Positions 8,298-50,937 of a DNA stretch of 64,000 bases are shown here, one piece after another. A program made the position numbers and the translations under genes. The notes beneath the pieces were generated by a model that saw only the letters and a program-made list of their open reading frames with translations, was not told the origin of the DNA and made no database searches. The stretch spans positions 1 through 64,000 of the forward strand of contig JANOSY010000014.1 in assembly GCA_031416075.1 (NCBI GenBank), given 5' to 3'. How positions within the stretch are numbered: the first letter of the stretch is position 1; each line of letters begins with the position of its first letter. This DNA is from Candidatus Tenderia sp. (GTDB lineage: Bacteria > Pseudomonadota > Gammaproteobacteria > Tenderiales > Tenderiaceae).

Positions 8298-8313
8298 AGC
8301 ACAAGTCGTGCCA
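8298..8313 (-). promoter_or_regulatory. Sigma-54 (-24/-12) promoter of the PEP-CTERM gene
   Basis: Minus strand TGGCACGACTTGTGCT is an exact GG-N10-GC with TGGCACG, about 90 nt upstream of the ATG. Confidence 0.85.
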
Positions 8314-8340: not shown

Positions 8341-9468
8341 TTATTTTTGAAATATATTTTGTTTTGACTTGCTAGGAGAGCATGGGGTTAATTGGTGTTG
8401 TAAAGAATCCTGACAGTGTGGGGTGCTGTGTGAAAAACTGCTGGGGGCGCGACGATAGTTATGCGCTGGGGCAGGTGCCGCGATACCAAGACGGAGGAGC
8501 AGCAACCCCTGATTGTTGTTTGATATTGCCTTCAGTAGTTGGCTGATTTTGCGACAGGCGGGTATTAGTGTGGGGTGGGGCTGTATAAATCTCAGCGAAA
8601 AAACACCAGCTGCGGCAAAAGGTTGCAGTGAGATTCCCTGTGCCGTGGCGCTTAGCCACGTGCGCTGCAGCGCTTGCCCTGCCCGGATGATGCTTGCCCG
8701 GTCTGTCTGTTCTACGCTGAGCAGGCAAAGAGCTGGCGACAGCAGGGTTGGCAGTACCGCCGAGCGGAAGCCGATGAGGTAGTTGCCCCCCAACCAGTTT
8801 AGCGCCTTCATCACAGGCCAGTGACGGAGTAGTTTGAATGCGAGGCGCAGGGGCGGTTCTATTGCGAGAGTGGCAGGAGCCAGGCCTTCTGTGCAGGAGG
8901 CTCTGTTTCCAACTTCAAAGCGGATGCTGGAGAAGAGTTCGTGATGAAGTTCTTTGTTGCTAAAGCGCAGGCTTTCGGCCAGCCACATGGCCTTGAGGGC
9001 GGCTTTGTAGTTTGGTGTGCCATCGATCCATATGAGTGTTACCCCCTGAATTTTCGCTGCTTCATCGCTGAGGAACTGTTCTGTGGCAGTGGTGATGGGG
9101 CCTTTCCAGGGGAAGCTGCGGTCTGTGTGACGTTCCGGAATGAATTGAGCCAGCGCCTCGTATTGTTTGGGAGCGGGGGAGAAGTTGATTCTGGCAGCCC
9201 AAAGCGGGGTTTGTTCTGGATCCGGCAGATACTCGATCTGGCTGTCGTAGCCGAATGAGTGGGCGCGCATGACGATGTTTTCGATGCAGGCGCCGATGGC
9301 AAGGTCGCTCAAGACGAAGCGTTGATCGGAGAAACCACCACTTCTGCTTTCGTCGATCCAGATTTCGAGGGCTTCGTTGTTCCAGCGGTAGAGCCAAGGC
9401 TGTGAGTTGTCTGCTGAGGGGGCGAGTATCGCTGCCTCTATGAGTAGTTGCCGGGTCTGTTCGTCCAT
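8341..9468 (-). CDS. Nitroreductase-family (Acg-like) FMN oxidoreductase
   Basis: AAILAPSADNSQPW, ERHTDR, AGQALQRTWLSATAQGISLQP, LLRLG motifs. Confidence 0.85.
   Translation of the reverse strand: MDEQTRQLLIEAAILAPSADNSQPWLYRWNNEALEIWIDESRSGGFSDQRFVLSDLAIGACIENIVMRAHSFGYDSQIEYLPDPEQTPLWAARINFSPAPKQYEALAQFIPERHTDRSFPWKGPITTATEQFLSDEAAKIQGVTLIWIDGTPNYKAALKAMWLAESLRFSNKELHHELFSSIRFEVGNRASCTEGLAPATLAIEPPLRLAFKLLRHWPVMKALNWLGGNYLIGFRSAVLPTLLSPALCLLSVEQTDRASIIRAGQALQRTWLSATAQGISLQPFAAAGVFSLRFIQPHPTLIPACRKISQLLKAISNNNQGLLLLRLGIAAPAPAHNYRRAPSSFSHSTPHCQDSLQHQLTPCSPSKSKQNIFQK
8399..8415. promoter_or_regulatory. TGT-N11-ACA enhancer (candidate PrsR / PEP-CTERM box)
   Basis: TGTAAAGAATCCTGACA about 85 bp upstream of the sigma-54 site; an IHF-like TAACAA-N4-TTA (minus strand, 8331-8343) lies between them. 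Confidence 0.7.
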
Positions 9469-9481
9469 GGTGGTTGTCGCT

Positions 9482-10354
9482 CTATTCGGGGGTTGCCAGC
9501 TTGCTCAGGATGCGGCGGGCAATCATCTTGGCGATGATAAGTGTTGGATTACGTACCCCACCAGGGCGCCAGGTGTGGACCAATTTGTTGCGATAAGCGT
9601 CAAACTGGAGTCCGTGGGGGGCGCTGCGGACGCCACCCCTGTTGAGCAGGATTTTGAGCGCTTCGGTGGCGGCCAGTCCGGCGCAGAGTTCGCAGGCCAT
9701 GGGGGTGGAGGGACCGCGGTGCTGCTCAAAGTCCACCGTGGATGGGTCGGCAAGGTAGGTGCGTTGTAACATTGCTGGGGAGAGGCCAACCAGAAAGTTG
9801 AGTAGCTGCTCCTTTTCTGGCAGCCCATCCAGGCGGAAGTACTCTTCAAAGGTCATTTTGCCGGGCAGAAAGTTGAGCAGTGCGGCCCCCATTCCTAGTG
9901 GTGCTGCGGTGATGGCGGGGATCTGTTTCTGGGCACATGCCTCAAACACCATGCGGCGGGCGGATATGGCAAAAAAGTCTAGTCCATCGACATACAGGTC
10001 GACCCCGGCCATGAATTCGTTGATATTGTCAGGCAAGACACCGCCTGCAAACCGGGTGATATTGAGCTCAGGATTGATATCCAGTGCCGCTTCTGCCATT
10101 GCATCAACCTTGGGGCGGTTGAGGTTGCTGATGTTCGCGCCCGCCTGCCGGTTGAAGTTGGCAAGTTCAAAATTGTCAAAATCGGCTATGTGAAAGTTGC
10201 CGATCCCAAGGCGTGTCAGTGTTAACAGATGGCTGCCACCAACGCCACCCATTCCGCCAATAGCGATACGTTTGTTGCGTAGGGTTTGCTGCTCTTCTGC
10301 GGTGACCCAGCCGGTATTGCGTGAAAATGCATGGGTATAGTCAAACAGGCTCAT
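9482..10354 (-). CDS. ThiF/E1-like adenylyltransferase (PEP-CTERM-associated type)
   Basis: GMGGVGG, DFDNFELANFNRQ, PKVD, VDGLD motifs; 4-nt overlap with the upstream acyltransferase. Confidence 0.9.
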   Translation of the reverse strand: MSLFDYTHAFSRNTGWVTAEEQQTLRNKRIAIGGMGGVGGSHLLTLTRLGIGNFHIADFDNFELANFNRQAGANISNLNRPKVDAMAEAALDINPELNITRFAGGVLPDNINEFMAGVDLYVDGLDFFAISARRMVFEACAQKQIPAITAAPLGMGAALLNFLPGKMTFEEYFRLDGLPEKEQLLNFLVGLSPAMLQRTYLADPSTVDFEQHRGPSTPMACELCAGLAATEALKILLNRGGVRSAPHGLQFDAYRNKLVHTWRPGGVRNPTLIIAKMIARRILSKLATPE

Positions 10355-11115
10355 TTTTGTGGGGTTGCCTGTTGGGATGTGATTTCCAGCTGGCGCTGAA
10401 TGTTGTGCAGCAGCTCAACCAGATCGGGTTTGAGGTTGCTGAATAGACTAGCGCGGCTGATGTAAAACGGCGCTCGTGTACCACGGTGCTCGATAGTATC
10501 GCCGGTCTGTTCAAACAGGATGCCAAAGCGGCGCAGTTGCCGCGCAAGGCGGGGTTCCATCATGGCAAATACACCGTCCAGTCCTTGGTTGAGGCCCATG
10601 GCGGTGATTGCGACGTAGAGTCCTAGCGCGACGGAGGGGAAGCGGCGGCGTGCATCATCGTCTTGGTTATCGATGGATTCGCTACCACCATCGGGGTATT
10701 GGGATTCGCCGCGACGGCGGCGGAAGTTTGCGGTGATGGCCAGTCGTGATATTTCACCATATTGGCTTCGTTCGTTGCCTGATGGGCCGTCGAACGCCCA
10801 TTTGAGCTTCTCATTGCAGGCATTTTCTAGTGGAAATTTGGCGTTAGGGTCATGGCTGTCGGCTAGGATCAGCCGAATGCAGCCAGCGTAGGTTTGGCTT
10901 GGCTTGTGGAATAGTAGGCAGTGGATTGAACGCAAGTCGTAATCGTCAAACTCCAGATGGTTGGCCCGTTGCGCCTCATACCCAAGCTCTTCGCAATAGA
11001 CCTGGTGGCGTATTGTATATACCTTTTTTATGAGGTCTTCGTTGCTGGCCGGGATGACACTGAAATAGCCATCAAAGAGTGTCGCAATGGTGGGTGCGGT
11101 CATGGTGATGTGCAA
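10351..11115 (-). CDS. PEP-CTERM/exosortase-associated acyltransferase (N-acyl amino acid synthase type), copy 1
   Basis: IRHQVYCEELGYE, EFDDYD, GCIRL, EISRLAI, FRRR, AMMEPRLARQL, EHRGTRAPF motifs. Confidence 0.88.
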   Translation of the reverse strand: MHITMTAPTIATLFDGYFSVIPASNEDLIKKVYTIRHQVYCEELGYEAQRANHLEFDDYDLRSIHCLLFHKPSQTYAGCIRLILADSHDPNAKFPLENACNEKLKWAFDGPSGNERSQYGEISRLAITANFRRRRGESQYPDGGSESIDNQDDDARRRFPSVALGLYVAITAMGLNQGLDGVFAMMEPRLARQLRRFGILFEQTGDTIEHRGTRAPFYISRASLFSNLKPDLVELLHNIQRQLEITSQQATPQK

Positions 11116-11349: not shown

Positions 11350-12105
11350 GTGATTTTTGATGACCGTTATGAGGTCTTTCTTGCGGATACAAGGGAGGCA
11401 ATGAGCCTTCACTATCACTTGAGGTATCAGGTCTATCACGTTGAAACAGGTTGGGAGTCAGATAAACATCTGGTTGGCGGTAAGCTTGAACGAGATAAAT
11501 ATGATGCCTTTTCCAAGCATTTTCTGGTGCGTGATCGATTAACTCGTGAGTGGGCAGGGGGGATGCGTCTGGTTGTCTCGGGTTTTAATGAGTTGCCTCT
11601 GGCGCGGGTGAGTCAACTTGACCGCATTGCTGGCATCGAGTTTGATCAAAGCCATTGTGTTGAGGTTTCCCGTCTGTTTGTTTTGCCTGATTACCGCGGT
11701 GGCCGCCGTTATGGCGAGGTTTCCGCGGTGAAAAAACGTACGTCAGCCTCTTATTTTGAGGTAATGCTCGGACTGATCCGGGCTGCCCGTTCGTTTGGGT
11801 TACATAACGGTTTGAAAAGTTGGTACTTTTTGGTGGAGCCAGGGTTGGCTCGGAGTATCCAACGTTTAGGTATTGACCTTTTCTGCTGTGGTCCGGAGGT
11901 TGATTATCGTGGCATCAGGCGTCCCTACTATGGTGAGGTCTCCAGTTGCTTTGACCGCATATTGTCCGCTCCTTCTGAGCTGTCCATGATGTTTTCCCGC
12001 AAGGAGGCCTATCGGTCTTTTTCCCGTTCGTTCATTGAGCCTCCCAGCCTTGATGCTGTTAATGGTTGTTTTGGAGAGTTAAATTGTTCGGGTATGGGGG
12101 CTTGA
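11350..12105 (+). CDS. PEP-CTERM/exosortase-associated acyltransferase, copy 2 (divergent)
   Basis: LRYQVY, ERDKYD, GGMRL, EVSRL, VEPGLAR, YRGIRRPY motifs; GTG start after gggag. Confidence 0.82.
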   Translation: MIFDDRYEVFLADTREAMSLHYHLRYQVYHVETGWESDKHLVGGKLERDKYDAFSKHFLVRDRLTREWAGGMRLVVSGFNELPLARVSQLDRIAGIEFDQSHCVEVSRLFVLPDYRGGRRYGEVSAVKKRTSASYFEVMLGLIRAARSFGLHNGLKSWYFLVEPGLARSIQRLGIDLFCCGPEVDYRGIRRPYYGEVSSCFDRILSAPSELSMMFSRKEAYRSFSRSFIEPPSLDAVNGCFGELNCSGMGA

Positions 12106-34897: not shown

Positions 34898-36706
34898 TTA
34901 ATGGTGCCTGGACTCTAACCACTCGTTCAGTACGGCAAGTATCCAAACCATGGTGCCGTAGTATGATGCTGAGTTTTTAGTTCTATGAATATCGATGATA
35001 TGGTCAATAAAGTCTGGTTTTATATAACGGCGCTTTTTAAGGTCAGCCAAGTTATCATATATATGTTCTTGCATAGCGGGTGATTTTTTTAGCCATTCAC
35101 CAAATGGCAAGCCAAAACCATGTTTGGTTTTATTGATGATCTGCTCAGGTAAAAACCCGGTAAGACACTCTTTATAAAAATAACGAAGACTTTGCCCTTT
35201 GAGCTTTAATGTTGAGGGTATTTTGGTGGATATATGGAGCAGTTCATCACTGAGCATCGGATAACGTACATTCATGCCGGCCATTGCGCAGGCGCGGTTC
35301 ACTTTTACCAGGTCGTTATCCGCGAGTGTCGATTTCCATTCCATGTAGAGCATGCGATTTAGCATGCTGGCATCGGTTGGCCTGTTATAGCTAAGCCGTT
35401 TTTCGTTAACCGGGTATTGTTGATCGATAGCGCTGAGAAAGTCTTTATGAAATATTTTCTCAGAGGAAAAGTAGTTAATGAAACTGTAGCGCTCCATTCT
35501 ATCGGGCATAGGGGTATTAGCCTGTTCAATGTAACTCTTGAGTTTGGCAAAGGGCTGGTATTTGTTGTAGGCCATATCATTTAATAACAACGGCTCGAAC
35601 AGATGTTTTCTGAGTAGATTGGGTACTTTTTTGTAGGGTTCGAAGAGATATTGTTTGGCATAACGGGCATTTCCAGCAAATAGTTCATCACCACCATCGC
35701 CTGCTAACAGAGTGGTGATTCCATCTTCCTTTGCTACCTTGGCGCATAGATAGGTAGGTATGGCCGATGAGTTACCAAATGGCTCATCGTATCCTCTGAC
35801 CACCGTAGAAAATGCTGCCGCCACATCATCAGGAGTTACGTAGTAACTTCTCAGGTTAATACCAAAATGTTTTGCGGCAATTTTTGCGTATTCAGTTTCG
35901 TCATAGCCGGACTCTTCAAAGCCCATGCTGTATGCACTGATTGTGCGGTCTGCATGTTGTGATAAGTAACCAGTGACCGTTGAACTATCAAGCCCCCCAC
36001 TAAGAAATGTCCCAGTGGTTGCGGAAATATCGTGTTTTATAACTGATTGATAGAGCGCTGCTCTCGTTTGTTCTTTTAATATCTCTAATGAGCTATGATT
36101 GGATTCATCAAAAGCGGGCATCCAATATAGTGATTTAGTCTGTGAACCACCGAAAAAATGCACTGATTGTGCGGGCTCAAGTTTGTATATGTTTTTATAA
36201 ATTGTCATCGGGCTTGATATGACATGTGAATCAATAAAATTAAAAATTGCTTGGTCGTTTATGACGGGTGTGGCCTGCATTGATGCGGTTAATAGCGTAA
36301 GCTGGTTTCCGATTATTATCTGTTCTGAATTTTGAGTATAAAAAATTTGTGCGGACGAAAATTTATCAGTACTGATTAAAACAGCACCAGATTTTTTGTT
36401 GAAGGCAACAAGAGACACCCCTTCAGAGATATCAGATAAGTTAATATTATTATAAATATATTCATCTAATATGATATTGGCAGCTTTCTGTCCAGATTCA
36501 CCTTTATAAAAGACTAGGTCATTGGATAGAATAACCACTGCATCGTTATTGTCCGCTATAAGAATAGGGTTAAGAAGCTGGTTATGATAGGCAATCCCGG
36601 CTCTTGAGTTTATGGGGGATATTGTTGGCGATAGTATGTTTTTACTATGAAGCGAATTCATTACAGTATTGTTATCAATATTGCACCAGAAAATGAACTT
36701 ATTCAT
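34898..36706 (-). CDS. AsnB-like ATP-dependent amide ligase with a degenerate glutaminase domain
   Basis: FLSGGLDSS, EPFGNSS, GDGGDELFAG and KHGFGLP retained; no N-terminal MCG, no HRGPD or NGEIYN. Confidence 0.85.
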   Translation of the reverse strand: MNKFIFWCNIDNNTVMNSLHSKNILSPTISPINSRAGIAYHNQLLNPILIADNNDAVVILSNDLVFYKGESGQKAANIILDEYIYNNINLSDISEGVSLVAFNKKSGAVLISTDKFSSAQIFYTQNSEQIIIGNQLTLLTASMQATPVINDQAIFNFIDSHVISSPMTIYKNIYKLEPAQSVHFFGGSQTKSLYWMPAFDESNHSSLEILKEQTRAALYQSVIKHDISATTGTFLSGGLDSSTVTGYLSQHADRTISAYSMGFEESGYDETEYAKIAAKHFGINLRSYYVTPDDVAAAFSTVVRGYDEPFGNSSAIPTYLCAKVAKEDGITTLLAGDGGDELFAGNARYAKQYLFEPYKKVPNLLRKHLFEPLLLNDMAYNKYQPFAKLKSYIEQANTPMPDRMERYSFINYFSSEKIFHKDFLSAIDQQYPVNEKRLSYNRPTDASMLNRMLYMEWKSTLADNDLVKVNRACAMAGMNVRYPMLSDELLHISTKIPSTLKLKGQSLRYFYKECLTGFLPEQIINKTKHGFGLPFGEWLKKSPAMQEHIYDNLADLKKRRYIKPDFIDHIIDIHRTKNSASYYGTMVWILAVLNEWLESRHH

Positions 36707-36755: not shown

Positions 36756-37784
36756 TCATGGTAAGTATTTTACAATCTTAGGCCCGATGAAATTGGCTAT
36801 TTTTAATGGAAGTTTCTGCCAAAGTTGAATTGCCAGCCGGTATTTTGGATTATTTGGATTAAGGGCTGGTAGTGATTCATTATCAGCCTTCAACCAATAA
36901 TGCCAATACAGTTGTTTCTCACTGGCGCCCCACTGACGCTTGAACTTATACGTTCCGCTATCTCTGGAGCATCGGCCAAAGTCGAATGTGTGATAACCAT
37001 GGGTAATAGCGAGTCGAAGTGTGTCCCAGTAGAGTGCCATGTTAGCGCTGATGTGATTATATTCTTTAAGGGACGATGCCCAGGGAATCTCAAGAGTGCC
37101 GTTGAAACCAATTAAAAAAGCTGCGGCAATCGGTTGTTTCTGATGTTGTATAACAATAATATGGCTATTCTGTGCAAAGGTAGAGATGATCTCCCGGAAA
37201 AAACTAATTGGATAAACAGGTGTGCCGAGATCACGCATGTTTTTTGAGAATACACTATAAAAATCGCCAAGCAGTTCGATACCTCCGACAATGGTTTGAA
37301 CACCTTCTTTCAGGGGGCGTTTGATTTGAGCGCGTAACTTTGATGAAAATGATTTCCATAACATCTCTTCATTATCAGGAAGCTCAAGAAACATAGTTAT
37401 TTTATCGTGCTTGACGGGCAAGTTATCACGCTGTTGGCTGTCACGATACTCAATGTGGCTGACATTGAGTTTATTGCACATTATATTTGCGTATTCCATT
37501 AGAGAGTTTTCAATTTCTGGAGTATTACCAAGCGCACCGCCATAATTGAAGTATGGCATGGAGACAAAAAAATCACCAAAAAGGGGACTTTTCAGTCGTA
37601 TGAGTTGTAAAACGCCTATAATCTCCCCATTCTCAACGGCAGCTATTTGAATAGAATTGTGATTGAACACATTTTTTATTATCGTCACCCAGCATGATAA
37701 ATGATAGATGCCGCCAAGGGGCGATTTTCTGACATATTCATCCCAGGCACCTGTTTTTTGTTTTTCTATTGAGATGATATCCAT
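36756..37784 (-). CDS. FemAB-family XrtA/PEP-CTERM-associated protein (TIGR03019-like)
   Basis: SMPYFNYGG, KLRAQIKR, NMRDLGTP, PWASS, FDFGR, FKRQWG, NPNNPKY. Confidence 0.9.
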   Translation of the reverse strand: MDIISIEKQKTGAWDEYVRKSPLGGIYHLSCWVTIIKNVFNHNSIQIAAVENGEIIGVLQLIRLKSPLFGDFFVSMPYFNYGGALGNTPEIENSLMEYANIMCNKLNVSHIEYRDSQQRDNLPVKHDKITMFLELPDNEEMLWKSFSSKLRAQIKRPLKEGVQTIVGGIELLGDFYSVFSKNMRDLGTPVYPISFFREIISTFAQNSHIIVIQHQKQPIAAAFLIGFNGTLEIPWASSLKEYNHISANMALYWDTLRLAITHGYHTFDFGRCSRDSGTYKFKRQWGASEKQLYWHYWLKADNESLPALNPNNPKYRLAIQLWQKLPLKIANFIGPKIVKYLP

Positions 37785-39794: not shown

Positions 39795-40904
39795 CTATCC
39801 TTTTGTATGGCGAAAAATACATTTTATAATATTTTTGGATCGCGTTGCACTGTATGCGATTCTAGACCTTATTTTTTTGTTAAATATGGTATAGCGCTTT
39901 TGAGTGTAAGTGCTAGTCGCCCATCTCATTTTCATGGGGTCTTTTACGCCAAGTAAATCGTAATATTTTATTCCATGTGCGCAGAGATATTTTGTTATTT
40001 CAAACTTTATAATGTTCCCTGGGCTATATTCTTTGTAGTCGCCAGAGAAACTTGATTTTAGACTTTCGAATACCCCATTGAATAAAATTCCGTAGCTGTA
40101 AGCAATAGGGATATCTTTATCAAAGATAACAAATCCCATTAGCCAGTTATTGATGGCTGCCATCTCTGTGAAATCGTTATAGAATTTTTCTTGAAGTTTA
40201 TTGGTTGTGATCGATGTTCCTGCTTGCTCTTTCCACGATTTTTTTTCTATATAGTGTATGTGTTCAATGAATTCATTGTGGTTTTCAATGGACTTGTATA
40301 TTTTTAAGTGAGTTTCTTTTTGAAGGTCAAATTTTTTTAGCCGGGAAATAACATTGTATCTAAATTTTTTGTCGAGTCTGCTGATAAAAGTTTCGTGAGA
40401 TTCGGGGAGATGAATATATGGAGATTCAATATATTCATCATTTGTATACGATAAGTTGTATTTTTCGAGTGTCTTATTGACATTTTCTTCGTGATAATTG
40501 TTTGATGTGACGCTAAAAGCCAAGGTATCCCATTGATCAGTATTGTTGTGTAAAAATTTTATAAAATTATCAAAATGGAGATATTCATTATCTGCCAGTA
40601 TCAATCCATTCCTTGAAGAATATATTTCTTGAATTTGTTCAATTGATTCTAATTTAATTATTTTTAAGTGAGTTTTAATTCTCTTGGAGTATGGAAAGAT
40701 AAATTTAATTTCGCAGTTCTTTTCGCTTGTAAATACGCCACTTTTATCGTGGAGTGAATGGCTTTTTATAATTGCGCTTGTCCATTCATAAGTGGATGAT
40801 ACCCCAGTGTTTTTTATGTGTGGATGGGCTGATGAGGCAATACTGTTCCATGTTTTTTTTATTTCTTCGCAATCGTGTATTGTTTTGATTTTTATTGTTG
40901 GCAT
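39795..40904 (-). CDS. GNAT/Acetyltransf_6 protein, paralogue 2
   Basis: KKFRY, EKKSWKEQAGTSIT, YSPG, YDLLG, KMRW. Confidence 0.8.
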   Translation of the reverse strand: MPTIKIKTIHDCEEIKKTWNSIASSAHPHIKNTGVSSTYEWTSAIIKSHSLHDKSGVFTSEKNCEIKFIFPYSKRIKTHLKIIKLESIEQIQEIYSSRNGLILADNEYLHFDNFIKFLHNNTDQWDTLAFSVTSNNYHEENVNKTLEKYNLSYTNDEYIESPYIHLPESHETFISRLDKKFRYNVISRLKKFDLQKETHLKIYKSIENHNEFIEHIHYIEKKSWKEQAGTSITTNKLQEKFYNDFTEMAAINNWLMGFVIFDKDIPIAYSYGILFNGVFESLKSSFSGDYKEYSPGNIIKFEITKYLCAHGIKYYDLLGVKDPMKMRWATSTYTQKRYTIFNKKIRSRIAYSATRSKNIIKCIFRHTKG

Positions 40905-41104: not shown

Positions 41105-42370
41105 TTATGTTCTAGAGGCTTCGTTGCAAACTTCTGATAATAAATGTGCTGTGTTTCTTCGAGAATAGTTGTTAATGACGCATTGTTCCAAGGTTACTAT
41201 TGCTCCATTATTTATTGAAGTGATAAAGTCCTCTATATGTTTTTTTATTTCGTCGTGATCATCCAGGGCCGCAATGTGTTTCATGCCTAATTTTGCAAGT
41301 AATTTTGCAGTATCGCCATGGTGGTCTGCGAGAGCAAGAATGGGGCGTTTTGCGCGCAGATATTCATATAATTTTGCGGGGATGGCTGGATTTGATGTGT
41401 AGCCTTGAAATATTAATAACCCGTCAGTCAATAGCATCTCTTTGATTGCTTCGCTGTAGGGGATAGGTGGTTTGAATTCGATTATGTCTGCGATGTCTTT
41501 ATCGGCGACCATTTTTTTATAGTCATTCTCATGGCCGCATGCACGTAAGGTAATAACGAGGCTCTCTGAGCTAATCTTTCTTTCATGTTTTAGTTGTGAA
41601 ACGGCCTCAAAAAAATGGCTGGGGTCTCTGTCGCTGGTGTTGTATATCAGACCACTATGAAGTAGACGGATTTTTTTCTCTTGAACTTTTTCGGGGAGAT
41701 TTTTTTCGGCCTCTTGAAAGGTCTCTTCATCGAAACCGTTAGGTATAACATGCCACTGCGTATGGTTTTCTTTTGGGTAGCGTTTCATGCATATCTCTTT
41801 TGCCCCTTCGGTGCAAAAGATAACGCGTATGGCGTGTTTTACAACGCTCTCTTCGATGAATAGTCGGGCTTTTCTGACTAATTTGTTGCGGGGTGCCCAT
41901 TCGCCTGTTTTAGGGTCTTGCTCAATCATAGGGTCTCGGAAATCAGCTATCCATGGCACGCCTGTTATTTTGTGAAGGCAGTAGGCGATTAGGTGCGTGG
42001 TGGCGAGTGGGTAGGTTGACCAGATAAGTTCTGGTTTGTGGTGTTTAATTGCCCGTATTCCCGCAGGTATTGCTCCGATAATCCAACTAATCCATCGATC
42101 TGGAATGGCAAGTAATTGAGTGTGTCGACCTTTGATTGATAGGTGGCGGGCTGAGTCGAGGGCAAATGCCCTGATAGTTTCAACCTCTTTGGGTATCTCT
42201 GAGATAAGATCGTTCGATGTTTTTTCGTATGCTCGTGGATGGGCGCTTAATACAACTGGAAGCCATCCATCGTTGGGTAAATACTGGCTGAATCGTAGGG
42301 TCCGTTGTACACCACTGCTGCCTGCAAAGGGTGGGTAGTGGAAAGCGATCATTAGAATTTTTTTACTCAT
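41105..42370 (-). CDS. Glycosyltransferase (GT4-like)
   Basis: AFHYPP..GSSGVQR, WIADFRDP, IPNGFD, PAKLYEY. Confidence 0.88.
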   Translation of the reverse strand: MSKKILMIAFHYPPFAGSSGVQRTLRFSQYLPNDGWLPVVLSAHPRAYEKTSNDLISEIPKEVETIRAFALDSARHLSIKGRHTQLLAIPDRWISWIIGAIPAGIRAIKHHKPELIWSTYPLATTHLIAYCLHKITGVPWIADFRDPMIEQDPKTGEWAPRNKLVRKARLFIEESVVKHAIRVIFCTEGAKEICMKRYPKENHTQWHVIPNGFDEETFQEAEKNLPEKVQEKKIRLLHSGLIYNTSDRDPSHFFEAVSQLKHERKISSESLVITLRACGHENDYKKMVADKDIADIIEFKPPIPYSEAIKEMLLTDGLLIFQGYTSNPAIPAKLYEYLRAKRPILALADHHGDTAKLLAKLGMKHIAALDDHDEIKKHIEDFITSINNGAIVTLEQCVINNYSRRNTAHLLSEVCNEASRT

Positions 42371-43455
42371 GTAAATGACCTGGTCTTTTCTGCTCGGTAT
42401 TTTTCCAGTACTGAGTAGGTGCTGGCGAGCTTTCCAGTGATGCTGCTGCTGTAAATGGTATGTTGCGTTTGTATATAGCTGTCTTTAGTCCATTTTCGTT
42501 TTGACGGCTCAATAATGCCAAGATAATCAAATAGCATTAATTTGTTATCATGTAGGTCCAAAAAAACCATATAGTCTATAAGATGCCCCGGGCTATACTG
42601 TTTGTATTTCTCTTTGAAACTGGTTTTAAGGCACTCACAAACCCCGTTAAACACGATGTTTATACTATGTGCAAAGGGTTCGTTATCTAGATAAATAATT
42701 GCGCCTCTTAACCAGCCCCGTTTGGCTGATTTTGGTATGAAAGAGTTATAAAAATCTTGCTGGTACTGATTTTTAGTAATAGAAGTGCCCGCTTCTTCTT
42801 TCCACGATGCGCGTTCTATTTCATAGACATCACTTAGAAAATCGGCACTTTCGTTTTCATGAGTAATGGTCTTGAATGTTAACCGCCCAGTCTGTTCGAG
42901 ACTTTTTATGCTTGTTCTGATGGTGTATCTGAATTTTTTCTCTAAGGTGTTTAAAATGTCATCTCTATTTTCAGGGAGTTTTTTCCAGGCAGATATAATG
43001 TGTTGTGTGCTGGTATAAGATGTGCCTGATTGGGTTAGATAGTTTGTGATAGCTTCGTTGTCTTCTGGATTGCAAGTGGTCAATTTAAATGATGCGATGT
43101 CATTTTTTTCTATTATTGAAGAGATTATATTAATAGAGGAGGCTGTTGATTTTCTGATGAGTCCGTTGCGAGTTGCATATAGTTCGGCTACTTGCGACAG
43201 ATTTTTTTCCTGATATAGGTATCTGTTTTTCTGTTTTTTATACACGGGTAGAATGGCTGTTATTTCGTTTTTATCTCGGGCAATATACACGTGTATCAGT
43301 TCATTTTTCAGGCGGGTCTCTGCCAACGATTCAGTCCATTCATAGGTCATTGATATACCCGGTGTTTGAATATGGGGACTGTCATGTGATAACAAGGCGT
43401 TCCATGTGTCACGTAATTCTCTGCATGCCTCCAAGGTTTTTATTTCGATATTCAT
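42367..43455 (-). CDS. GNAT/Acetyltransf_6 protein, paralogue 3
   Basis: KKFRY, ERASWKEEAGTSIT, YSPG, FDYLG, KRKW. Confidence 0.8.
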   Translation of the reverse strand: MNIEIKTLEACRELRDTWNALLSHDSPHIQTPGISMTYEWTESLAETRLKNELIHVYIARDKNEITAILPVYKKQKNRYLYQEKNLSQVAELYATRNGLIRKSTASSINIISSIIEKNDIASFKLTTCNPEDNEAITNYLTQSGTSYTSTQHIISAWKKLPENRDDILNTLEKKFRYTIRTSIKSLEQTGRLTFKTITHENESADFLSDVYEIERASWKEEAGTSITKNQYQQDFYNSFIPKSAKRGWLRGAIIYLDNEPFAHSINIVFNGVCECLKTSFKEKYKQYSPGHLIDYMVFLDLHDNKLMLFDYLGIIEPSKRKWTKDSYIQTQHTIYSSSITGKLASTYSVLEKYRAEKTRSFT

Positions 43456-44851: not shown

Positions 44852-45100
44852 ATGGCGTTGATCGATGAAGTTAAACAGATTCTTGGCGATGTTCTGCAGT
44901 TGGGAGACAAGGGTGACACCATGTCTGAAAGCACCCTGTTGCTGGGTAGTATGCCTGAGTTTGACTCGATGGCGGTGGTCTCTGTCATTACGGCAATTGA
45001 AGAGAATTACGGTTTTGTGGTGGATGATGATGAGATCGACGCCGAGGTGTTTGAGTCGATAGGGAGCTTGGCCCGTTTTGTAGAGCGGAAGCTCGGCTGA
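44852..45100 (+). CDS. Acyl/aminoacyl carrier protein
   Basis: 82 aa, acidic; PEFDSMAV phosphopantetheine Ser motif. Confidence 0.9.
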   Translation: MALIDEVKQILGDVLQLGDKGDTMSESTLLLGSMPEFDSMAVVSVITAIEENYGFVVDDDEIDAEVFESIGSLARFVERKLG

Positions 45101-45936
45101 TGTCTTTAAGAGGGATTGGGTGCCAGCCACTCTTTCTTAACGGGGCGCAGGGCCGCCTGTTTGCGCTGAGTTACCACCCCCCCCAGCTATTAACGCGCCG
45201 CCATGGTGTGTTGATTGTTCCGCCGTTTGCGGAGGAGATGAATAAGTCACGCCGCATGTTGTCGCAGCAGGCACGGCTGCTGGCGGAGGAGGGGTATTTA
45301 ACCCTTATGCCTGACCTTTATGGGACGGGAGAGAGTGACGGTGAGTTTAGTGATGCCAGCTGGACCGGTTGGTGTGAAGATCTGGTGTGTGGCTATCGCT
45401 GGTTGCGGGAGCGTGGTGTCGATACGGTGTCAGTATTGGCGCAGCGTACGGGGGCGCTTCTGGTGACAGCGCTGGTGCGTGAGAAGGGCGTCACGTTGAA
45501 CCGGCTGGTTTTGTGGCAGCCGGTTGTCTCCGGGGATATGTTTCTGACCCAGTTTTTACGGTTGCGCCTGGCGGCAGAGATGGCTAAAGGTGTAGCTGGG
45601 AGATCCAGTGTGTCCCAGATTAGAGCGGAACTGGAGGAAAAAGGGGTGGTTGAGGTGGCCGGTTATACACTTTCACAGCATCTGGCGTTGCCGTTAGGTG
45701 ATAGCCGCATGGAGTTTCCTGCTGGCTGTTTTGCCGGTGAGTTGCACTGGTGTGAGCTGGTAGCAACCGCTGACCGGGCGGTAACGGCAGTGACACAACG
45801 TGCGCTGGATGCACTTCAGGCCGGTGGCGTTCATTGTGAATTACACAAGGTGGTTGGGCACCCCTTTTGGGGGGCGACAGAGATTGAGGATCTGCCCATG
45901 TTACAAGAGACCACGCGGCGGATATTTCTGCAGTGA
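45100..45936 (+). CDS. Alpha/beta hydrolase 2, exosortase A-associated (TIGR03101-like)
   Basis: PPFAEEMNKSRR, DLYGTGESDG, LWQPV, QFLRLR, VAGY; the nucleophile elbow reads AQRTG. Confidence 0.88.
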   Translation: MSLRGIGCQPLFLNGAQGRLFALSYHPPQLLTRRHGVLIVPPFAEEMNKSRRMLSQQARLLAEEGYLTLMPDLYGTGESDGEFSDASWTGWCEDLVCGYRWLRERGVDTVSVLAQRTGALLVTALVREKGVTLNRLVLWQPVVSGDMFLTQFLRLRLAAEMAKGVAGRSSVSQIRAELEEKGVVEVAGYTLSQHLALPLGDSRMEFPAGCFAGELHWCELVATADRAVTAVTQRALDALQAGGVHCELHKVVGHPFWGATEIEDLPMLQETTRRIFLQ

Positions 45937-46805
45937 TGGCCACGGTTGCCGAGACTCCACTGCTGTTCAGGTGTGGTGATAAAGAGTTGTTGGGTATGTT
46001 GCATCTGCCCCAGCAGCCTCAGCGTACCGGTGTGGTGGTGGTGGTGGGTGGGCCGCAGTACCGGGTTGGATCGCACCGTCAATTTCTGCTTTTAGCACGC
46101 TTCCTCTCTCGGCAGGGTGTTGCCGTCTTTCGTTTTGATTACCGGGGTATGGGAGATAGCGAGGGGGAGATCGGTAGTTTTGAGACGGTGGATGATGACA
46201 TAAAGGCGGCTGTGGATACCTTTATGGCCAACGCGCCGGGTGTAGAGCAGGTGATGTTATGGGGGTTGTGTGATGCCGCCTCTGCCGCGCTCTTTTATGC
46301 CCACCAGGATCGACGTATCAGTCATTTGTTGTTGCTCAACCCTTGGGTCAGGACAGAGGCGGGGCAGGCCAAAGCCTATTTGCGCCACTACTATCTGCAG
46401 CGTGTGATGGATAGGGAGTTCTGGGCAAAACTGTTCTCTGGCAGGTTTGATTTTCGTGCCTCCCTACGTTCAATTTTGAGCTTTATCAGAACCAGTCGCC
46501 AAGGGGGTGCGGTAGAGCGTGTTGAAGCGGATAACCATCGGCCAGCGCCACCATTACCGCTGCCTGAGCGGATGCTGGAGGGGTTGGGCCGTTTTGAAGG
46601 CAAGGTGCGGATTATCATCAGTGGTGATGATCTGACGGCGGCTGAGTTTATGGATTTGGTAAAATCGTCAAAGGGTTGGCGTAAGATATTAAAAAAGCGG
46701 CGGGTTGATTTTAAGTCTCTGGACGGGGCCAACCACACCTTTTCAACTCAGCAGTGGCGTGACCAAGTGGCGGAATGGAGTCTCGAATGGATAGATACGG
46801 AATGA
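45933..46805 (+). CDS. Alpha/beta hydrolase 1, exosortase A-associated (TIGR03100-like)
   Basis: VGGPQYRVGSHRQF, FDYRGMGDS, WGLCDAAS, LLNPWVR, DLTA, ANHTFS. Confidence 0.9.
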   Translation: MMATVAETPLLFRCGDKELLGMLHLPQQPQRTGVVVVVGGPQYRVGSHRQFLLLARFLSRQGVAVFRFDYRGMGDSEGEIGSFETVDDDIKAAVDTFMANAPGVEQVMLWGLCDAASAALFYAHQDRRISHLLLLNPWVRTEAGQAKAYLRHYYLQRVMDREFWAKLFSGRFDFRASLRSILSFIRTSRQGGAVERVEADNHRPAPPLPLPERMLEGLGRFEGKVRIIISGDDLTAAEFMDLVKSSKGWRKILKKRRVDFKSLDGANHTFSTQQWRDQVAEWSLEWIDTE

Positions 46806-47941
46806 GTTCTGTGCGGTGGTGGCTCGGAATATTACTGATTGTGGCCGGAGTGGCCGAAGCGCGTACGCTGCAGGTGGGACCTGGCAAGCAGTTCCTGTTT
46901 CCCAGTGTGGCGGCCCAGTTTGCCGAGGATGGTGATCTGATTGAGATTGACGCAGCGGGACTCTATCAAAATGACCATGTGGTCTGGCCGCAGAACAATA
47001 TCACCATCAAGGGTGTGAATGGTCGTCCACATTTGAAGAGCTTTGGTTTGATCCCGAACCAGAAGGGGGTATGGGTCATTCAGGGGAACGGTGTGACTGT
47101 GACCAATGTCGAGATCTCCGGTGCCAAGGTGAAAGATGGTAATGGCGCGGCTATCCGCCTGGAGGGGGAGAATTTCCACCTGTCCGACTGTTTAATCCAT
47201 AGTAACCAAAACGGTATTCTCGCTGGCATACGCCAACCCGACAGTGAAGTGTTAATTGAGCGCTGTGAATTTGCCTTTAACGGTGCGGGTGATGGATATA
47301 CCCATAATATCTACATTGGTGAGGTGGGTAAGTTTACCCTGCGTGACAGCTACTCCCACAATGCGTTGGTGGGCCAGAATGTAAAGTCACGGGCGAAAGA
47401 GAACTACATCCTCTACAACCGGCTGTTTGAAGGGACAACCAGTTATGCGGTGGACCTCTCAAACGGCGGCTATGGCTTGGTGATGGGGAATATTCTTTAT
47501 CAGGGGAAGGATACTGAAAACTGGACGCTGGTGACGTTTGGTCCAGAGGGGCTGAGCTATCCTGAGAACAAGCTGGAGGTGGTTTACAACACCTTTTTGA
47601 GTGAACGTGCCGGTGCTGGTGTCTTTGTGAAGGCCGCAGATAAGGCGGACGTGAAGATTATCAATAATATTTTTGGCGGTATTGCAGAGCTGTTTTTGGG
47701 TGATAAAAGCAGTGCGCGGATTGAAAATAATGTGCAGGAGAAGATGCCCTACGGTAGTTTCTCCCCCCAAGGGGTCACCTTAAGCGGTCTTGTGGCATCC
47801 AAGGTTATCGACATGGCTGTGCCGGTGGTTGATCTGCGTGGCGAGGCGCTGTTACCACTCCGGCAGACCATTGCCAGTGTTGTGGGTACTCGCAAACCCC
47901 TGGGCAAGGGGTTGGATATTGGCGCGCTGGAGTACCGTTAG
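46802..47941 (+). CDS. Exported right-handed parallel beta-helix protein
   Basis: Signal peptide (AEA-R); LQVGPGK, NGAAIR, NQNGIL, HNIYIG, KSRA, DIGALEY. Confidence 0.8.
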   Translation: MSSVRWWLGILLIVAGVAEARTLQVGPGKQFLFPSVAAQFAEDGDLIEIDAAGLYQNDHVVWPQNNITIKGVNGRPHLKSFGLIPNQKGVWVIQGNGVTVTNVEISGAKVKDGNGAAIRLEGENFHLSDCLIHSNQNGILAGIRQPDSEVLIERCEFAFNGAGDGYTHNIYIGEVGKFTLRDSYSHNALVGQNVKSRAKENYILYNRLFEGTTSYAVDLSNGGYGLVMGNILYQGKDTENWTLVTFGPEGLSYPENKLEVVYNTFLSERAGAGVFVKAADKADVKIINNIFGGIAELFLGDKSSARIENNVQEKMPYGSFSPQGVTLSGLVASKVIDMAVPVVDLRGEALLPLRQTIASVVGTRKPLGKGLDIGALEYR

Positions 47942-47968
47942 CGCGATTGCCAGGGTCTGTAACAGGCC

Positions 47969-49201
47969 CTAAAGCAGCAGTTCGCTGGCAGGCGGGTGAC
48001 TCAAAAACCTCTCCGGGCTAGCGCTCAGGCCATAGGCCCCTGACTGATAAATAGCCACCAGATCACCAACTTCCGTTTTGGGCAGCTCCATTTTGCTGGC
48101 CAGCAGATCGAGTGGTGTACAGAGTGGTCCCACAACCGTAACGTTTTCATGCTCCGTGCAATCCATGCGGTTGGCGATGGCGACGGGGTAGTTTTTGCGG
48201 ATGACCTGGCCAAAGTTGCCCGAGGCGGCAAGGTGGTGGTGCAGGCCGCCATCGGTCACAATAAACCGCTCCCCACGGGACTCTTTGATATCGATCACCC
48301 GACAGATATAGAGTCCCGCCTCGCCGACAATAAACCGTCCCAGCTCAGTGATGAGTGCTGTTTCGGGTAGTGACTTGCTGAAGGTTGCCATTAAACGTTC
48401 GAGGTTCTCACCAATGGGGCGCAGATCAAGTCGCTTTTCACCGGGAAAGTAGGGGATGCCTAGGCCGCCACCTATGTTTAAGTGGTGCGGCGGCTGCGGT
48501 GCTGTGTTGCTGAGGCGCAACGCCAGTGCCAGTGTCTTTTCGTGGGCTTCCATAATCGCTTCAGGATTGAGGTTTTGTGATCCCCAGAAGAGGTGAAAGC
48601 CGCGAAACTCCAGCGCCATCCCTGCCATCTCCCGCAACATGGCGGGTACCTGTTCCGCATCCACACCAAAAGGTTTGGGGCCGCCGCCCATCTTCATGCC
48701 GGAAGATTTCAGGTCGTAATCGGGGTTTACCCGTACTGCCACGCGGGGTGTAATGCCCAGCGCCATGCCTATCTGTGTGGCGCGGCGCATCTCGGTGACC
48801 GACTCAAGGTTGATGGTGATGGTTGCGGCGATGGCCTGGCGCAGCTCACGGTCAGTTTTGCCGGGACCGGCGATGCTGATTTTTTCTGCCGTCATGGTGG
48901 TATCAAGGGCCGTTTGCATCTCGCCAGCAGAGGCGAGGTCAAAACCATCCACCAGTGTTGCCAGGTGTTGTACAACGGCGGGCATGGGATTGGCCTTGAT
49001 GGCGTAGTGGAGTTTCAGTGCTGTTGGCAGGGCATCACGTAGGTACTGGATACGTTCGCTGATCAGACGGCGGTCGTAGGCGTAAAAGGGGGTCTGCCCA
49101 ACCCGTTCCGCCAGCTGTGTGATGGGCATGCCCCCCACCTGGAGTTCGCCGTTGATAGTGGGGAACTGTTCCATCGGCGCGTGTATGGGTCTCTCTTTCA
49201 C
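47969..49201 (-). CDS. Fold-type III PLP-dependent decarboxylase, exosortase A-associated (BtrK-like)
   Basis: YAIKANP (PLP Lys), ASAGE, NIGGG, ELGR, GPLCT, GAYG. Confidence 0.92.
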   Translation of the reverse strand: MKERPIHAPMEQFPTINGELQVGGMPITQLAERVGQTPFYAYDRRLISERIQYLRDALPTALKLHYAIKANPMPAVVQHLATLVDGFDLASAGEMQTALDTTMTAEKISIAGPGKTDRELRQAIAATITINLESVTEMRRATQIGMALGITPRVAVRVNPDYDLKSSGMKMGGGPKPFGVDAEQVPAMLREMAGMALEFRGFHLFWGSQNLNPEAIMEAHEKTLALALRLSNTAPQPPHHLNIGGGLGIPYFPGEKRLDLRPIGENLERLMATFSKSLPETALITELGRFIVGEAGLYICRVIDIKESRGERFIVTDGGLHHHLAASGNFGQVIRKNYPVAIANRMDCTEHENVTVVGPLCTPLDLLASKMELPKTEVGDLVAIYQSGAYGLSASPERFLSHPPASELLL

Positions 49202-49219
49202 AGGTCACTCATCCTTACA

Positions 49220-50800
49220 TCAGTCAAACAGATTCTGGTATTCGCCGCTGAGCAGTTTGCGGTCGATCTTACCGTTGGGGTTGCGAGGTAGGGCGTTGCG
49301 TTGCTCAATGGCGTGGGGCACCATAAAGTTAGGCAACTGCTGTTTGCAGTGGCTGATGATTTTGTCAGGCTCCAGCTCGCCGGCCTGATTGGCGGTGGCC
49401 ACCAACAGAATGGCTTGGCCGAGGGTGGGGTGGGGGATGCCCAAGGCTACCACTTCGCCCACCAGCTGGCTGGCGTAGATCACCTCTTCCACCTCGGTTG
49501 GGCTGACACGATAGCCGGAGGTTTTGATCATTTCGTCACGGCGCGCCACAAAATAGAGATACCCCTCATCATCCATTTTGACGGTATCACCCGACCAGAC
49601 CGCAATTTCGGTGAGGGTGAGCGCCGGATTTTGCCCGGGCAGCGGTTTAAAACGTTCGGCGGTTTTGGCCGGATCATTCCAGTAGCCCATGGCCACCAGT
49701 GCCCCCCGATGTACCAGCTCGCCCGGCTCACCCGGCGCACAGCCACTGCCATCTTCACGCACGACCATAATCTCAGCATTGGGGATCGCCTTGCCCATGG
49801 AGTCAGGGCGGTTGTCGATCTCCTCCGGCGGCAGATAGGTGGAGCGGAACGCTTCGGTCAGGCCATACATGAGGAAAAACCGGCTGTTGGGCAAGGAGGT
49901 ACGTAATCTGGCCAAGGTGGTTTTAGGCATTGCGCCACCAGAGTTGGTCATGTAACGCAGAGAACTAATCGCCTCTGCTGGCCACTCCAGCTCCGCCAGC
50001 TGGTTCCAGAGCGGTGGTACCCCGGCCAGACCGGTGATCTGTGCATTGGCCACCATCTTCACCACATCCCGTGGCAGCAGATAGTCCATCAGTACCGTGG
50101 TTGCGCCGGTATAAAAGGCGGTACTCAGCTGGCTGAAACCGTAATCAAAACTGAAGGGCAATACGGCGAGCAGGCGGTCTTCCGGGCTGTTGTGCAGATA
50201 CTCCGCCACACTTTTTGCCCCCGCCACCATGTTTTTGTGAGAGAGCACCACCCCTTTGGGTTTACCGGTACTGCCAGAGGTGTAGAGGATAGCGGCCATA
50301 TCGGCGTCAATCCGGCGGTGTGGCCGTCTGCCCGTACCTATTCCGCGTAGCACATCCCAGGCGAGGCAGTTCACGGGAGCGCCCTCTGGCAGGTTGGCAG
50401 CCGCACAGTTGACCACGATAATAGTGTGCAGATCGTGGCACTGTGGCAACATCTCTTTCAGCTGTTCATAACGTTCTTTGGCGGTGATCAGTATACGGAC
50501 ATTACAATCGGCCAGGATGTAACCAACCTGTGGGCTTTTGAGCAGTGGATTGATCGGTACAAATACCCCGCCTGCCTGGCTGATGGCAAAAAATGAGATG
50601 ACACTCTCGGGCAGCTTAGGCAGATAGATGGCCACCCGCTCGTCGCGCCCCAGACCGATATCGAGCAACGCCTGGGCAATAGACTCCACCTCAAGTGCCA
50701 GCGTTGCGTAACTGTACCGGCTGTTTTTATGTTGCAGCGCCACCTGTTCGGGGCGCTGCGTGGCGGAGTTTATAATCAGGTTGTGGAGTAGGTCAGTCAT
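49220..50800 (-). CDS. Adenylate-forming ligase, exosortase A-associated (TIGR03098-like)
   Basis: YTSGSTGKPKG, LPFSFDYG, YGLTE, SGD, IKTSGYRVSP, NPNGK; likely ATG at 50800. Confidence 0.93.
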   Translation of the reverse strand: MTDLLHNLIINSATQRPEQVALQHKNSRYSYATLALEVESIAQALLDIGLGRDERVAIYLPKLPESVISFFAISQAGGVFVPINPLLKSPQVGYILADCNVRILITAKERYEQLKEMLPQCHDLHTIIVVNCAAANLPEGAPVNCLAWDVLRGIGTGRRPHRRIDADMAAILYTSGSTGKPKGVVLSHKNMVAGAKSVAEYLHNSPEDRLLAVLPFSFDYGFSQLSTAFYTGATTVLMDYLLPRDVVKMVANAQITGLAGVPPLWNQLAELEWPAEAISSLRYMTNSGGAMPKTTLARLRTSLPNSRFFLMYGLTEAFRSTYLPPEEIDNRPDSMGKAIPNAEIMVVREDGSGCAPGEPGELVHRGALVAMGYWNDPAKTAERFKPLPGQNPALTLTEIAVWSGDTVKMDDEGYLYFVARRDEMIKTSGYRVSPTEVEEVIYASQLVGEVVALGIPHPTLGQAILLVATANQAGELEPDKIISHCKQQLPNFMVPHAIEQRNALPRNPNGKIDRKLLSGEYQNLFD

Positions 50801-50937
50801 ACAATATGGGTGCCGCATTCCATGTGAGTTGTTGGACCATAATCAGGCGTGGCTGCCATTATAGGCTATGCTGTTGGGCGAAAAAAACTATATCCCGTCA
50901 GAGGGGTGTGTCGGTTCGAATAGGCTCTTCTTGAGCG

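Follow-up and report, generated by a model that had tools for sequence, protein, structure and literature searches.

A carrier-protein cassette accompanying exosortase A in Candidatus Tenderia and its possible role in building an omega-aminoacyl unit for the polysaccharide system

The genome of Candidatus Tenderia sp. (assembly GCA_031416075.1) raises the question of what a ligase, a decarboxylase, a small carrier protein and two hydrolase-like proteins, encoded together in the same region as exosortase A (XrtA), could be making. The genes lie at positions 44852-50818 of the window, by which we mean the whole stretch of 64,000 nucleotides analyzed here (contig JANOSY010000014.1, positions 1 to 64,000, forward strand), and are referred to below as the cassette. 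Our answer, which we hold with a confidence somewhat better than even, is that the cassette encodes a cytoplasmic carrier-protein pathway supplying the exosortase A polysaccharide system with an omega-aminoacyl unit. All four exosortase A-associated families concerned (TIGR03098, TIGR03099, TIGR03100, and TIGR03101) score above their curated NCBIfam cut-offs in the window. Their models, classed as "hypothetical equivalogs", carry generic names and state no chemistry. The cassette genes and two genes of its context are:

44852-45100, + strand: acyl carrier protein (ACP), 82 amino acids, PF00550 24.6 bits, Asp-Ser-Met motif
45100-45936, + strand: hydrolase 2, TIGR03101 237.4 bits (cut-off 202.75)
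45933-46805, + strand: hydrolase 1, TIGR03100 367.1 bits (cut-off 168.45)
46802-47941, + strand: secreted right-handed beta-helix protein, PF13229 36.5 bits, signal peptide
47969-49201, - strand: fold-III decarboxylase dependent on pyridoxal phosphate (PLP), TIGR03099 622 bits (cut-off 478.45)
49220-50818, - strand: adenylating ligase, TIGR03098 819.4 bits (cut-off 592.35)
41105-42370, - strand (context): family 4 glycosyltransferase (GT4), PF13579 and PF13439, 421 amino acids
21221-22732, + strand (context): exosortase A fused to an EpsI domain, TIGR03109 314.2 bits (cut-off 208)

The cassette consists of two converging gene units. On the + strand, the genes overlap at their junctions (TGATG, GTGATG, and ATGA), and on the - strand the decarboxylase gene begins 18 bp 3' of the ligase gene. 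The first-pass annotation had described an ACP with a DSM motif, an adenylation enzyme and a fold-III PLP decarboxylase in two convergent operons; we found all three in this layout. The ATGA overlap between the genes for hydrolase 1 and the beta-helix protein amounts to translational coupling. Homologues of the latter were present at only 3 of 40 loci, which were fetched for holding a match to the decarboxylase or a hydrolase and are not a random sample. The beta-helix protein, which the first-pass annotation did not mention, is a lineage-specific accessory outside the cassette core.

The ligase bears on which acid enters the pathway. Among solved structures, the top line was LgrA with 271.6 bits, a score summed from stretches of 39.2, 76.7, and 147.1 bits, and the best single-stretch match was VinN with 212.3 bits. 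Other stand-alone beta-amino-acid:ACP ligases (IdnL1, HitB, and CmiS6) ranked high as well, and DltA was among the matches with 123.8 bits. When the pocket segment was searched alone (residues 215-345), two VinN entries came out on top with 48 bits. According to PMC11284099, VinN loads 3-methylaspartate through its beta-carboxyl onto the stand-alone ACP VinL. According to PMC11253843 and PMC7756342, Asp230 of VinN, the equivalent of GrsA Asp235, holds the amino group, and Ser299 and Arg331 hold the alpha-carboxyl of 3-methylaspartate. Phe231 brings about the pose of the beta-amino-acid substrate together with the beta13-beta14 loop, which is shorter by one residue than that of alpha-amino-acid domains and in this form is a hallmark of VinN-type enzymes (same sources).

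The alignment of the ligase pocket to VinN has no gap at the compared residues or in the beta13-beta14 loop. Asp225, Tyr226, Ser293, Phe324, and Arg325 of the ligase correspond to VinN Asp230, Phe231, Ser299, Lys330, and Arg331 (VinN chain numbering +16). In the alignment with LgrA, an alpha-amino-acid domain, HMMER placed a two-residue gap in the ligase at this loop. Asp225 and Arg325 are invariant in all 37 sequences of the family alignment (36 other loci and the window), and most of the rows shown have Ser or Thr at position 293. The ligase carries the VinN-type markers, namely the amino-binding Asp, the Ser/Arg pair for the alpha-carboxyl and the shortened loop with a bulky residue at position 231. 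The motif FSFDYG at A4, from which the first-pass annotation had argued, is present, and its Asp is the invariant Asp225. The pocket as a whole is stronger and more specific evidence than this Asp alone, and it points to an Asp-type acid activated at the side-chain carboxyl. Motif A10 is of the type seen in nonribosomal peptide synthetases (NRPS). The ligase is predicted to be a VinN-like ligase joining Asp (or Glu) through the side-chain carboxyl to an ACP.

The decarboxylase would act next, on the carrier. Its best solved matches were two BtrK entries, covering the full length with 247 bits, while the best diaminopimelate decarboxylase reached 170.6 bits. The lysA model gave 251 bits, below its cut-off of 297.9, and a true lysA (544 bits) lies on another contig of the genome. 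The decarboxylase family and BtrK have in common a His-rich segment and a short insertion, at a place where the LysA of this genome has an Arg-Pro segment. The domains are PF02784 and PF00278, and the PLP-binding Lys69, invariant and shared with LysA, is kept in the family along with other residues of the fold. BtrK is the L-glutamyl-[BtrI ACP] decarboxylase. According to PMC11350588, PLP decarboxylases of this kind (BtrK, CtaF, and FlvO) act on Glu or Asp tethered via the side chain to an ACP. The cassette enzyme is predicted to be a BtrK-like aminoacyl-S-ACP alpha-decarboxylase, and a carrier-bound substrate is suggested by this homology together with the adjacent ligase and ACP. The solved matches included no Asp-type decarboxylase (VinO, FlvO, CtaF, or BolN). 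Open frames of 812-889 amino acids around decarboxylase matches, and an 864-amino-acid frame in locus L042, had suggested a ligase-decarboxylase fusion. These frames are spurious, since the tblastn coordinates place two genes in different frames (checked in L042 and L029).

A dedicated carrier completes this front end. The best NCBIfam matches of the ACP were the specialized carriers AsbD and AmcB, all below cut-offs. All 28 family sequences keep Asp38 and Ser39, and Asp38-Ser39 is the predicted phosphopantetheine attachment site of a stand-alone acyl or aminoacyl carrier. The genome encodes a single phosphopantetheinyl transferase of the AcpS type. The ACP was present in 27 of the 40 fetched loci, adjoining either hydrolase 2 or the ligase-decarboxylase pair, and it is syntenic with ligase and decarboxylase across classes. 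Two loci (L041 and L042) run ligase-decarboxylase-ACP and have no hydrolases.

Is the cassette tied to exosortase A? We surveyed 401 genomes across the phylum, each at least 90% complete; related genomes among them are not independent. The decarboxylase was over its cut-off in 32 of the 401 genomes and XrtA in 36. Both occurred in 30 genomes, the decarboxylase alone in two (G201 and G263) and XrtA alone in six, so that XrtA accompanied the decarboxylase in 30/32 genomes, compared with 6/369 genomes in which the latter was missing. Among the 31 other genomes with the decarboxylase, the ligase lay at most 450 bp away on the same strand in 29 (exceptions G359 and G195), and hydrolase 1 (E <= 1e-25) was found in 29. 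Hydrolase 1 occurred in 29/29 decarboxylase genomes with XrtA and in 0/2 without it.

The gene order tells a similar story. Hydrolase 1 was present in 23 of the 40 fetched loci; hydrolase 2 was detected by tblastn in 20 of these, and by inspecting the open reading frames (ORFs) between ACP and hydrolase 1 in the other three. The triple ACP-hydrolase 2-hydrolase 1 is found in all 23, and the gene arrangement is beyond chance. Another family contributes 11 loci in which the five genes are arranged divergently and immediately adjoin the genes for XrtA export and chain length. Relatives of the decarboxylase occur in at least 574 stretches of species-representative genomes, including Thauera, Aromatoleum, Massilia, Janthinobacterium, Nitrosomonas, Nitrosospira, Thiobacillus, and Competibacter.

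A distant ligase-decarboxylase clade was also seen, at loci L043-L054 (genomes G227, G219, G086, G188, G061, G356, G241, G053, G207, G222, G069, and G136). Its decarboxylases score 344-455 bits, below the cut-off, and hydrolase 1 was found in none of the 15 genomes with a below-cut-off decarboxylase. An ACP adjoins the pair in L045 and L054, and L049 has three tandem ligase paralogues.

The two hydrolases bear on how the aminoacyl group would leave the carrier. The first-pass annotation had named them alpha/beta hydrolases, and the fold is confirmed: AlphaFold 2 models of both adopt it, with predicted local distance difference test (pLDDT) values of 89 for hydrolase 1 and 93.6 for hydrolase 2. 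A triad, however, exists only in hydrolase 1, where Cys113-Asp233-His268 is invariant in 24/24 sequences and the alignment places Cys113 on the nucleophile Ser of solved esterases. Residue numbers count from a GTG at 45933; the ATG at 45936 is the likelier start. In hydrolase 2, an Arg (Arg116) sits at the nucleophile elbow, where it aligns to the Ser of solved esterases. It is invariant in 21/21 sequences, which have no invariant His, and the elbow Arg is also found in hydrolase 2 of the three loci missed by tblastn. Neither protein has the Ser-Asp/Glu-His triad of serine alpha/beta-hydrolases, the Ser being replaced by Cys in hydrolase 1 and by Arg in hydrolase 2. Foldseek searches with both models returned generic feruloyl esterases, lipases, and monoglyceride lipases at template modeling (TM) scores of ~0.6-0.7, and the acyl-ACP thioesterase 1tht ranked 25th for hydrolase 2.

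The two proteins are predicted to bind each other. Their complex model scored 0.91, against 0.00 for the best control, at least 82% of contacts were shared between runs, and the partner pLDDT was at least 88. The mark used for this score was reached by 58 of 80 solved complexes and by 2 of 110 mismatched pairs, counts which are only rough here because custom alignments were used. The modeled interface pairs invariant residues, for example Asp75 of hydrolase 1 with Arg51 of hydrolase 2. Natural fusions provide independent support for the pairing. Longer homologues of hydrolase 1 gave 503 matches, of which 120 were listed. Among those listed, 118 are hydrolase 2-hydrolase 1 fusions, one hydrolase 2-hydrolase 1 fusion adds a C-terminal GT4 domain, one is hydrolase 1-GT4, and none contains NRPS domains. 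The GT4 domain resembles the product of the window gene 41105-42370. A homologue of this gene adjoins the ACP or hydrolase 1 gene in L015, L019, L022, and L024; in L021, ~2 kb separate it from hydrolase 1. From a homologue beside wecB in L018, the same gene had been guessed to encode a WecC-type dehydrogenase, and Pfam assigns it to the GT4 glycosyltransferases instead.

Taken together, the pathway could run in three steps. In the first, the ligase would adenylate the side-chain carboxyl of an acidic amino acid, most likely L-aspartate and less so glutamate, and pass it as a thioester to holo-ACP, as the pocket homology indicates. In the second, following the homology to BtrK, the PLP decarboxylase would remove the free alpha-carboxyl on the ACP, giving beta-alanyl-S-ACP, or 4-aminobutyryl-S-ACP if Glu is loaded. 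We regard these two steps together, which rest on residue-level homology and synteny, as quite probable, and favor Asp over Glu by a clear margin. In the third and weakest step, a heterodimer of hydrolases 1 and 2 might take the aminoacyl group onto Cys113 as a thioester and pass it to a cytoplasmic acceptor. The likeliest acceptor would be a sugar of a nucleotide- or lipid-linked repeat unit made with the neighboring GT4, in a logic comparable to the deacetylation and reacylation by LpxC and LpxD. This step, which draws on the active-site pattern, the gene coupling, the fusions, and the location, we put forward tentatively, at a little less than an even chance. The cassette enzymes have no signal peptide, and MBOAT/DltB (PF03062; membrane-bound O-acyltransferase) had no match in the 99.98%-complete genome, while a control search found PF03062 in 3 of 14 reference genomes. 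Any transfer is therefore expected in the cytoplasm.

The first-pass annotation had already proposed that Glu or Asp is loaded, decarboxylated on the ACP, and then transferred to a glycan or an anchor. The front half of this proposal is well supported at the sequence level, by the ungapped alignment to the VinN pocket, BtrK as nearest relative, the separate lysA, and the ACP synteny. The back half is circumstantial, as it draws on the location in XrtA polysaccharide loci and the hydrolase 1-GT4 fusions.

Several observations weigh against the pathway as we propose it. The whole-protein models do not settle the class of the ligase, with 335.7 bits for long-chain fatty-acid-CoA ligase (cut-off 476) and 273.9 bits for amino-acid adenylation (cut-off 317.4). 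Within the pocket, VinN Lys330 is replaced by Phe324, and the equivalent of VinN position 231 (Tyr226 in the window) is Ala in 5 of the 37 family members. The substrate leads disagree as well, with VinN suggesting an Asp-type acid and BtrK suggesting Glu. Foldseek with the models of hydrolases 1 and 2 gave no match to a known acyltransferase, and the interface between them looks pseudo-symmetric, so that likeness to homodimeric esterases may add to the score of the complex. Three genomes (G017, a 99%-complete relative, as well as G201 and G263) have ligase and decarboxylase and no hydrolase 1, and the hydrolase pair is consequently not the sole exit from the pathway. Finally, the decarboxylase is missing from 6 of the 36 XrtA genomes, which makes the cassette an accessory to the XrtA system.

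The surroundings of the cassette provide both its presumed context and alternative partners. XrtA lies in the same window, 27 kb away, at the center of a complete XrtA/PEP-CTERM polysaccharide core at 11.3-28.3 kb. The core holds export, chain-length, tyrosine kinase, outer-membrane and ATPase genes, wecB, a deacetylase, stp1, XrtA-EpsI, stp2, an AsnB-like amidotransferase, and an O-antigen-ligase-like protein. A stretch of low GC content at ~34-44.6 kb (0.37-0.42 versus 0.49-0.58 around it) separates the core from the cassette. It encodes an AsnB-like protein, an XrtA-associated FemAB-family protein, three more paralogues with PF13480 (GNAT-like, after the Gcn5-related N-acetyltransferases), a secreted tetratricopeptide repeat (TPR) protein, the GT4, and a weak DegT-like aminotransferase, and looks like a variable, possibly exchanged, tailoring region. 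Those of its genes that matter below are:

34898-36706: second AsnB-like protein
36756-37784: FemAB-family XrtA-associated protein, TIGR03019 365.9 bits
38555-39691, 39795-40904, and 42367-43455: three PF13480 GNAT-like paralogues

The second AsnB-like protein matches the XrtA amidotransferase model only from profile position 126, and its N-terminus is without the Cys2 present in the full-length paralogue at 23892. For both reasons, it apparently lacks the glutaminase part. Homologues adjoin the cassette in L022, L024, and L039, and the protein is a candidate amide-forming partner. On the other side of the cassette, past the ligase, the window encodes a trypsin-like protease and a dihaem cytochrome c, along with two housekeeping genes, argF and argD. 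No NRPS, polyketide synthase (PKS), or ketoacyl-ACP synthase III (KAS III) gene was present among the window ORFs scanned.

Further genes were observed in the window and genome, apart from the cassette. Two genes for TIGR03694, the PEP-CTERM-associated N-acyl amino acid synthase, are divergent at 10351-11115 (-) and 11350-12105 (+). On the - strand, the former is followed by two genes, one ThiF/E1-like (9482-10354) and one Acg/nitroreductase-like (8341-9468). Each matches one half of the fused "Rv1355c family" model NF005901, so that the pair resembles a split Rv1355c-family protein beside acyltransferases. A floc_PepA-like PEP-CTERM protein is encoded at 7327-8205 (-), with 46.8 bits below the cut-off of 80. 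A fused protein of 877 amino acids (895-3528), resembling the major facilitator superfamily and spermidine synthase, is encoded directly upstream of the XrtA-system TPR protein PrsT (3795-6452). The genome also has a second exosortase-like gene (contig C45:49749-50525), whose 191.7 bits are below the XrtA cut-off of 208.

Sigma-54 promoters do not stand out. With at most one mismatch allowed, the window has six matches where 7.5 would be expected, and neither the ACP gene nor the ligase gene has one upstream. A perfect match at 48517-48531 was discarded, as it is inside the decarboxylase gene. A -24/-12 element with one mismatch (8299-8313) lies ~95 bp upstream of the floc_PepA-like gene, although such matches are not above chance in the window.

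The neighbors in the low-GC region bring up a different fate for the aminoacyl group. With the same front end, the hydrolase pair might only edit or recycle the carrier, in the manner of a type II thioesterase, and the transfer would be done by the FemAB-family, PF13480 GNAT-like, or glutaminase-less AsnB-like proteins. All of these are encoded in the window (the TIGR03019 protein, the three PF13480 paralogues, and the AsnB-like protein matched from position 126), and homologues of the PF13480 and AsnB-like proteins adjoin the cassette elsewhere (L021-L024 and L039). Moreover, genomes with ligase, decarboxylase, and ACP but no hydrolases need another exit route. Yet an invariant Cys, an obligatory partner without a nucleophile, a widespread fusion, and a fusion to a glycosyltransferase exceed what editing needs, and hydrolase 1 tracks XrtA among the decarboxylase genomes, as the 29/29 and 0/2 above illustrate. 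We judge this alternative improbable, at perhaps one chance in several.

The product could also be something other than a polysaccharide decoration. At 10.3-12.1 kb, the same locus encodes two homologues of the N-acyl amino acid synthase, and a small free or lipid-bound metabolite, such as an N-acylated beta-alanyl compound, might be made with their help. A precedent is bolagladin, in which a beta-alanyl-ACP produced by VinN-like and BtrK-like enzymes becomes N-acylated, according to PMC7756342. However, the TIGR03694 genes are 33 kb away from the cassette, its recurrent neighbors are glycosyltransferases and XrtA export genes, fusions with a GT4 domain exist, and the scanned ORFs of the window include no NRPS, PKS, or KAS III gene. 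A metabolite of this type seems unlikely to us.

We think it very unlikely that the database names are right, with the ligase joining a fatty or organic acid to CoA and the decarboxylase acting separately on a free diamino or dicarboxylic amino acid: NCBIfam does call TIGR03098 "acyl-CoA ligase (AMP-forming)", the next-best whole-protein scores come from fatty-acid-CoA ligase models, and the lysA model still reaches 251 bits, but the pocket keeps the amino-binding Asp and carboxyl-binding Ser/Arg of VinN (Asp225 and Arg325 invariantly), motif A10 is NRPS-type, every fatty-acid-CoA ligase model stays below cut-off, the decarboxylase is without the LysA Arg-Pro segment and groups with BtrK, and a dedicated ACP is syntenic with both enzymes.

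If the cassette does deliver an omega-aminoacyl unit to the polysaccharide, what could the unit be for? One idea, which we consider unlikely, is that an omega-amino arm (beta-alanyl or 4-aminobutyryl) on a lipid-linked polysaccharide unit is the long-sought acceptor nucleophile of exosortase A. After cleavage of the PEP-CTERM protein, the acyl-enzyme of XrtA would be resolved on this primary amine, and the protein would become covalently tied to the exopolysaccharide, a chain of events to which we give the same low chance. Amine acceptors have parallels in sortase, which uses the glycine bridge built by FemABX, and in rhombosortase, which uses the amine of ethanolamine. In this scenario, the heterodimer of Cys/Arg hydrolase folds would represent a novel kind of enzyme transferring aminoacyl groups from a carrier protein to a glycan. 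The presence of hydrolase 1 in all 29 XrtA-positive and neither of the two XrtA-negative decarboxylase genomes is consistent with this idea, while the 6 of 36 XrtA genomes without the cassette count against it.

How does the cassette compare with known systems? It resembles the triads VinN/VinL/VinO, FlvN/L/O, and BolO/BolC/BolN: each combines a stand-alone enzyme of the ANL superfamily (acyl-CoA synthetases, NRPS adenylation domains, and luciferases), a stand-alone ACP, and a PLP decarboxylase acting on the carrier, the latter being suggested here by homology. The vicenistatin, fluvirucin, and bolagladin triads feed polyketide or lipopeptide lines, whereas the cassette has no PKS or NRPS and is set among XrtA polysaccharide genes. 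Those triads continue via a second ligase (VinM), an acyltransferase (VinK), or a KAS III, and the cassette has the Cys/Arg hydrolase-fold pair as partners instead.

In butirosin synthesis (BtrI/BtrJ/BtrK), BtrK is the closest solved relative of our decarboxylase and has in common with it the His-rich segment, which stands in place of the substrate segment of LysA. The butirosin substrate is Glu, whereas the cassette ligase looks Asp-type; furthermore, BtrJ belongs to the ATP-grasp ligases rather than to the ANL enzymes. BtrH and BtrG hand the butirosin product over to an aminoglycoside.

The cassette had also been called Dlt-like. This holds for the logic of ligase plus carrier, since in the Dlt system (DltA/DltC/DltB/DltD) an ANL ligase likewise loads an amino acid on a small dedicated carrier, there to modify an envelope polymer. 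It does not hold for the topology, as the genome has no MBOAT/DltB and the cassette enzymes are without signal peptides. Dlt includes no decarboxylation, and its MBOAT, DltB, passes the group across the membrane, whereas the proposed hand-over in the cassette is by cytoplasmic proteins of hydrolase fold.

For the hydrolase pair, a possible analogy is found in class III/IV polyhydroxyalkanoate (PHA) synthases (PhaC with PhaE or PhaR), which combine an alpha/beta-hydrolase fold, a Cys-Asp-His triad, thioester acyl donors, and an obligatory second subunit. No PHA synthase appeared as a sequence match or top structural match of hydrolase 1. Unlike in PHA synthases, the partner in the cassette is a paralogue of the catalytic subunit.

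The first-pass annotation had held that the chemistry of these exosortase-associated families was unresolved in print, and our literature searches agree. Across the full-text literature searched, a single paper refers to any of the four TIGR accessions. None of the terms ligase, decarboxylase, hydrolase, and acyl carrier occurs in Haft et al. 2006 (PMC1569441), and two recent papers on exosortase loci mention none of the cassette genes. Nothing in the full texts links the four families to VinN/BtrK-type chemistry or any function; supplements and many subscription papers were outside this search, so that a report may be missed. The names "acyl-CoA ligase" and "hydrolase" are probably misnomers.

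The cassette itself is real, conserved, and widespread, and a full member of catalogued families without characterization. The chemistry it likely performs varies the known logic of aminoacyl-ACP decarboxylation in a new way, here in an exopolysaccharide/exosortase setting and with an undescribed two-part Cys enzyme at its end. New in the cassette are the Cys-Asp-His hydrolase 1, the Arg-elbow hydrolase 2, their predicted binding, and the natural fusions.

Among floc- and biofilm-forming bacteria, exosortase A/PEP-CTERM systems occur widely. A scheme leading from Asp via beta-alanyl-S-ACP and a Cys enzyme to the glycan would re-annotate thousands of genes and define a new two-part enzyme taking groups off carrier proteins. 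It would also point to a primary amine as a chemical handle on XrtA polysaccharides.

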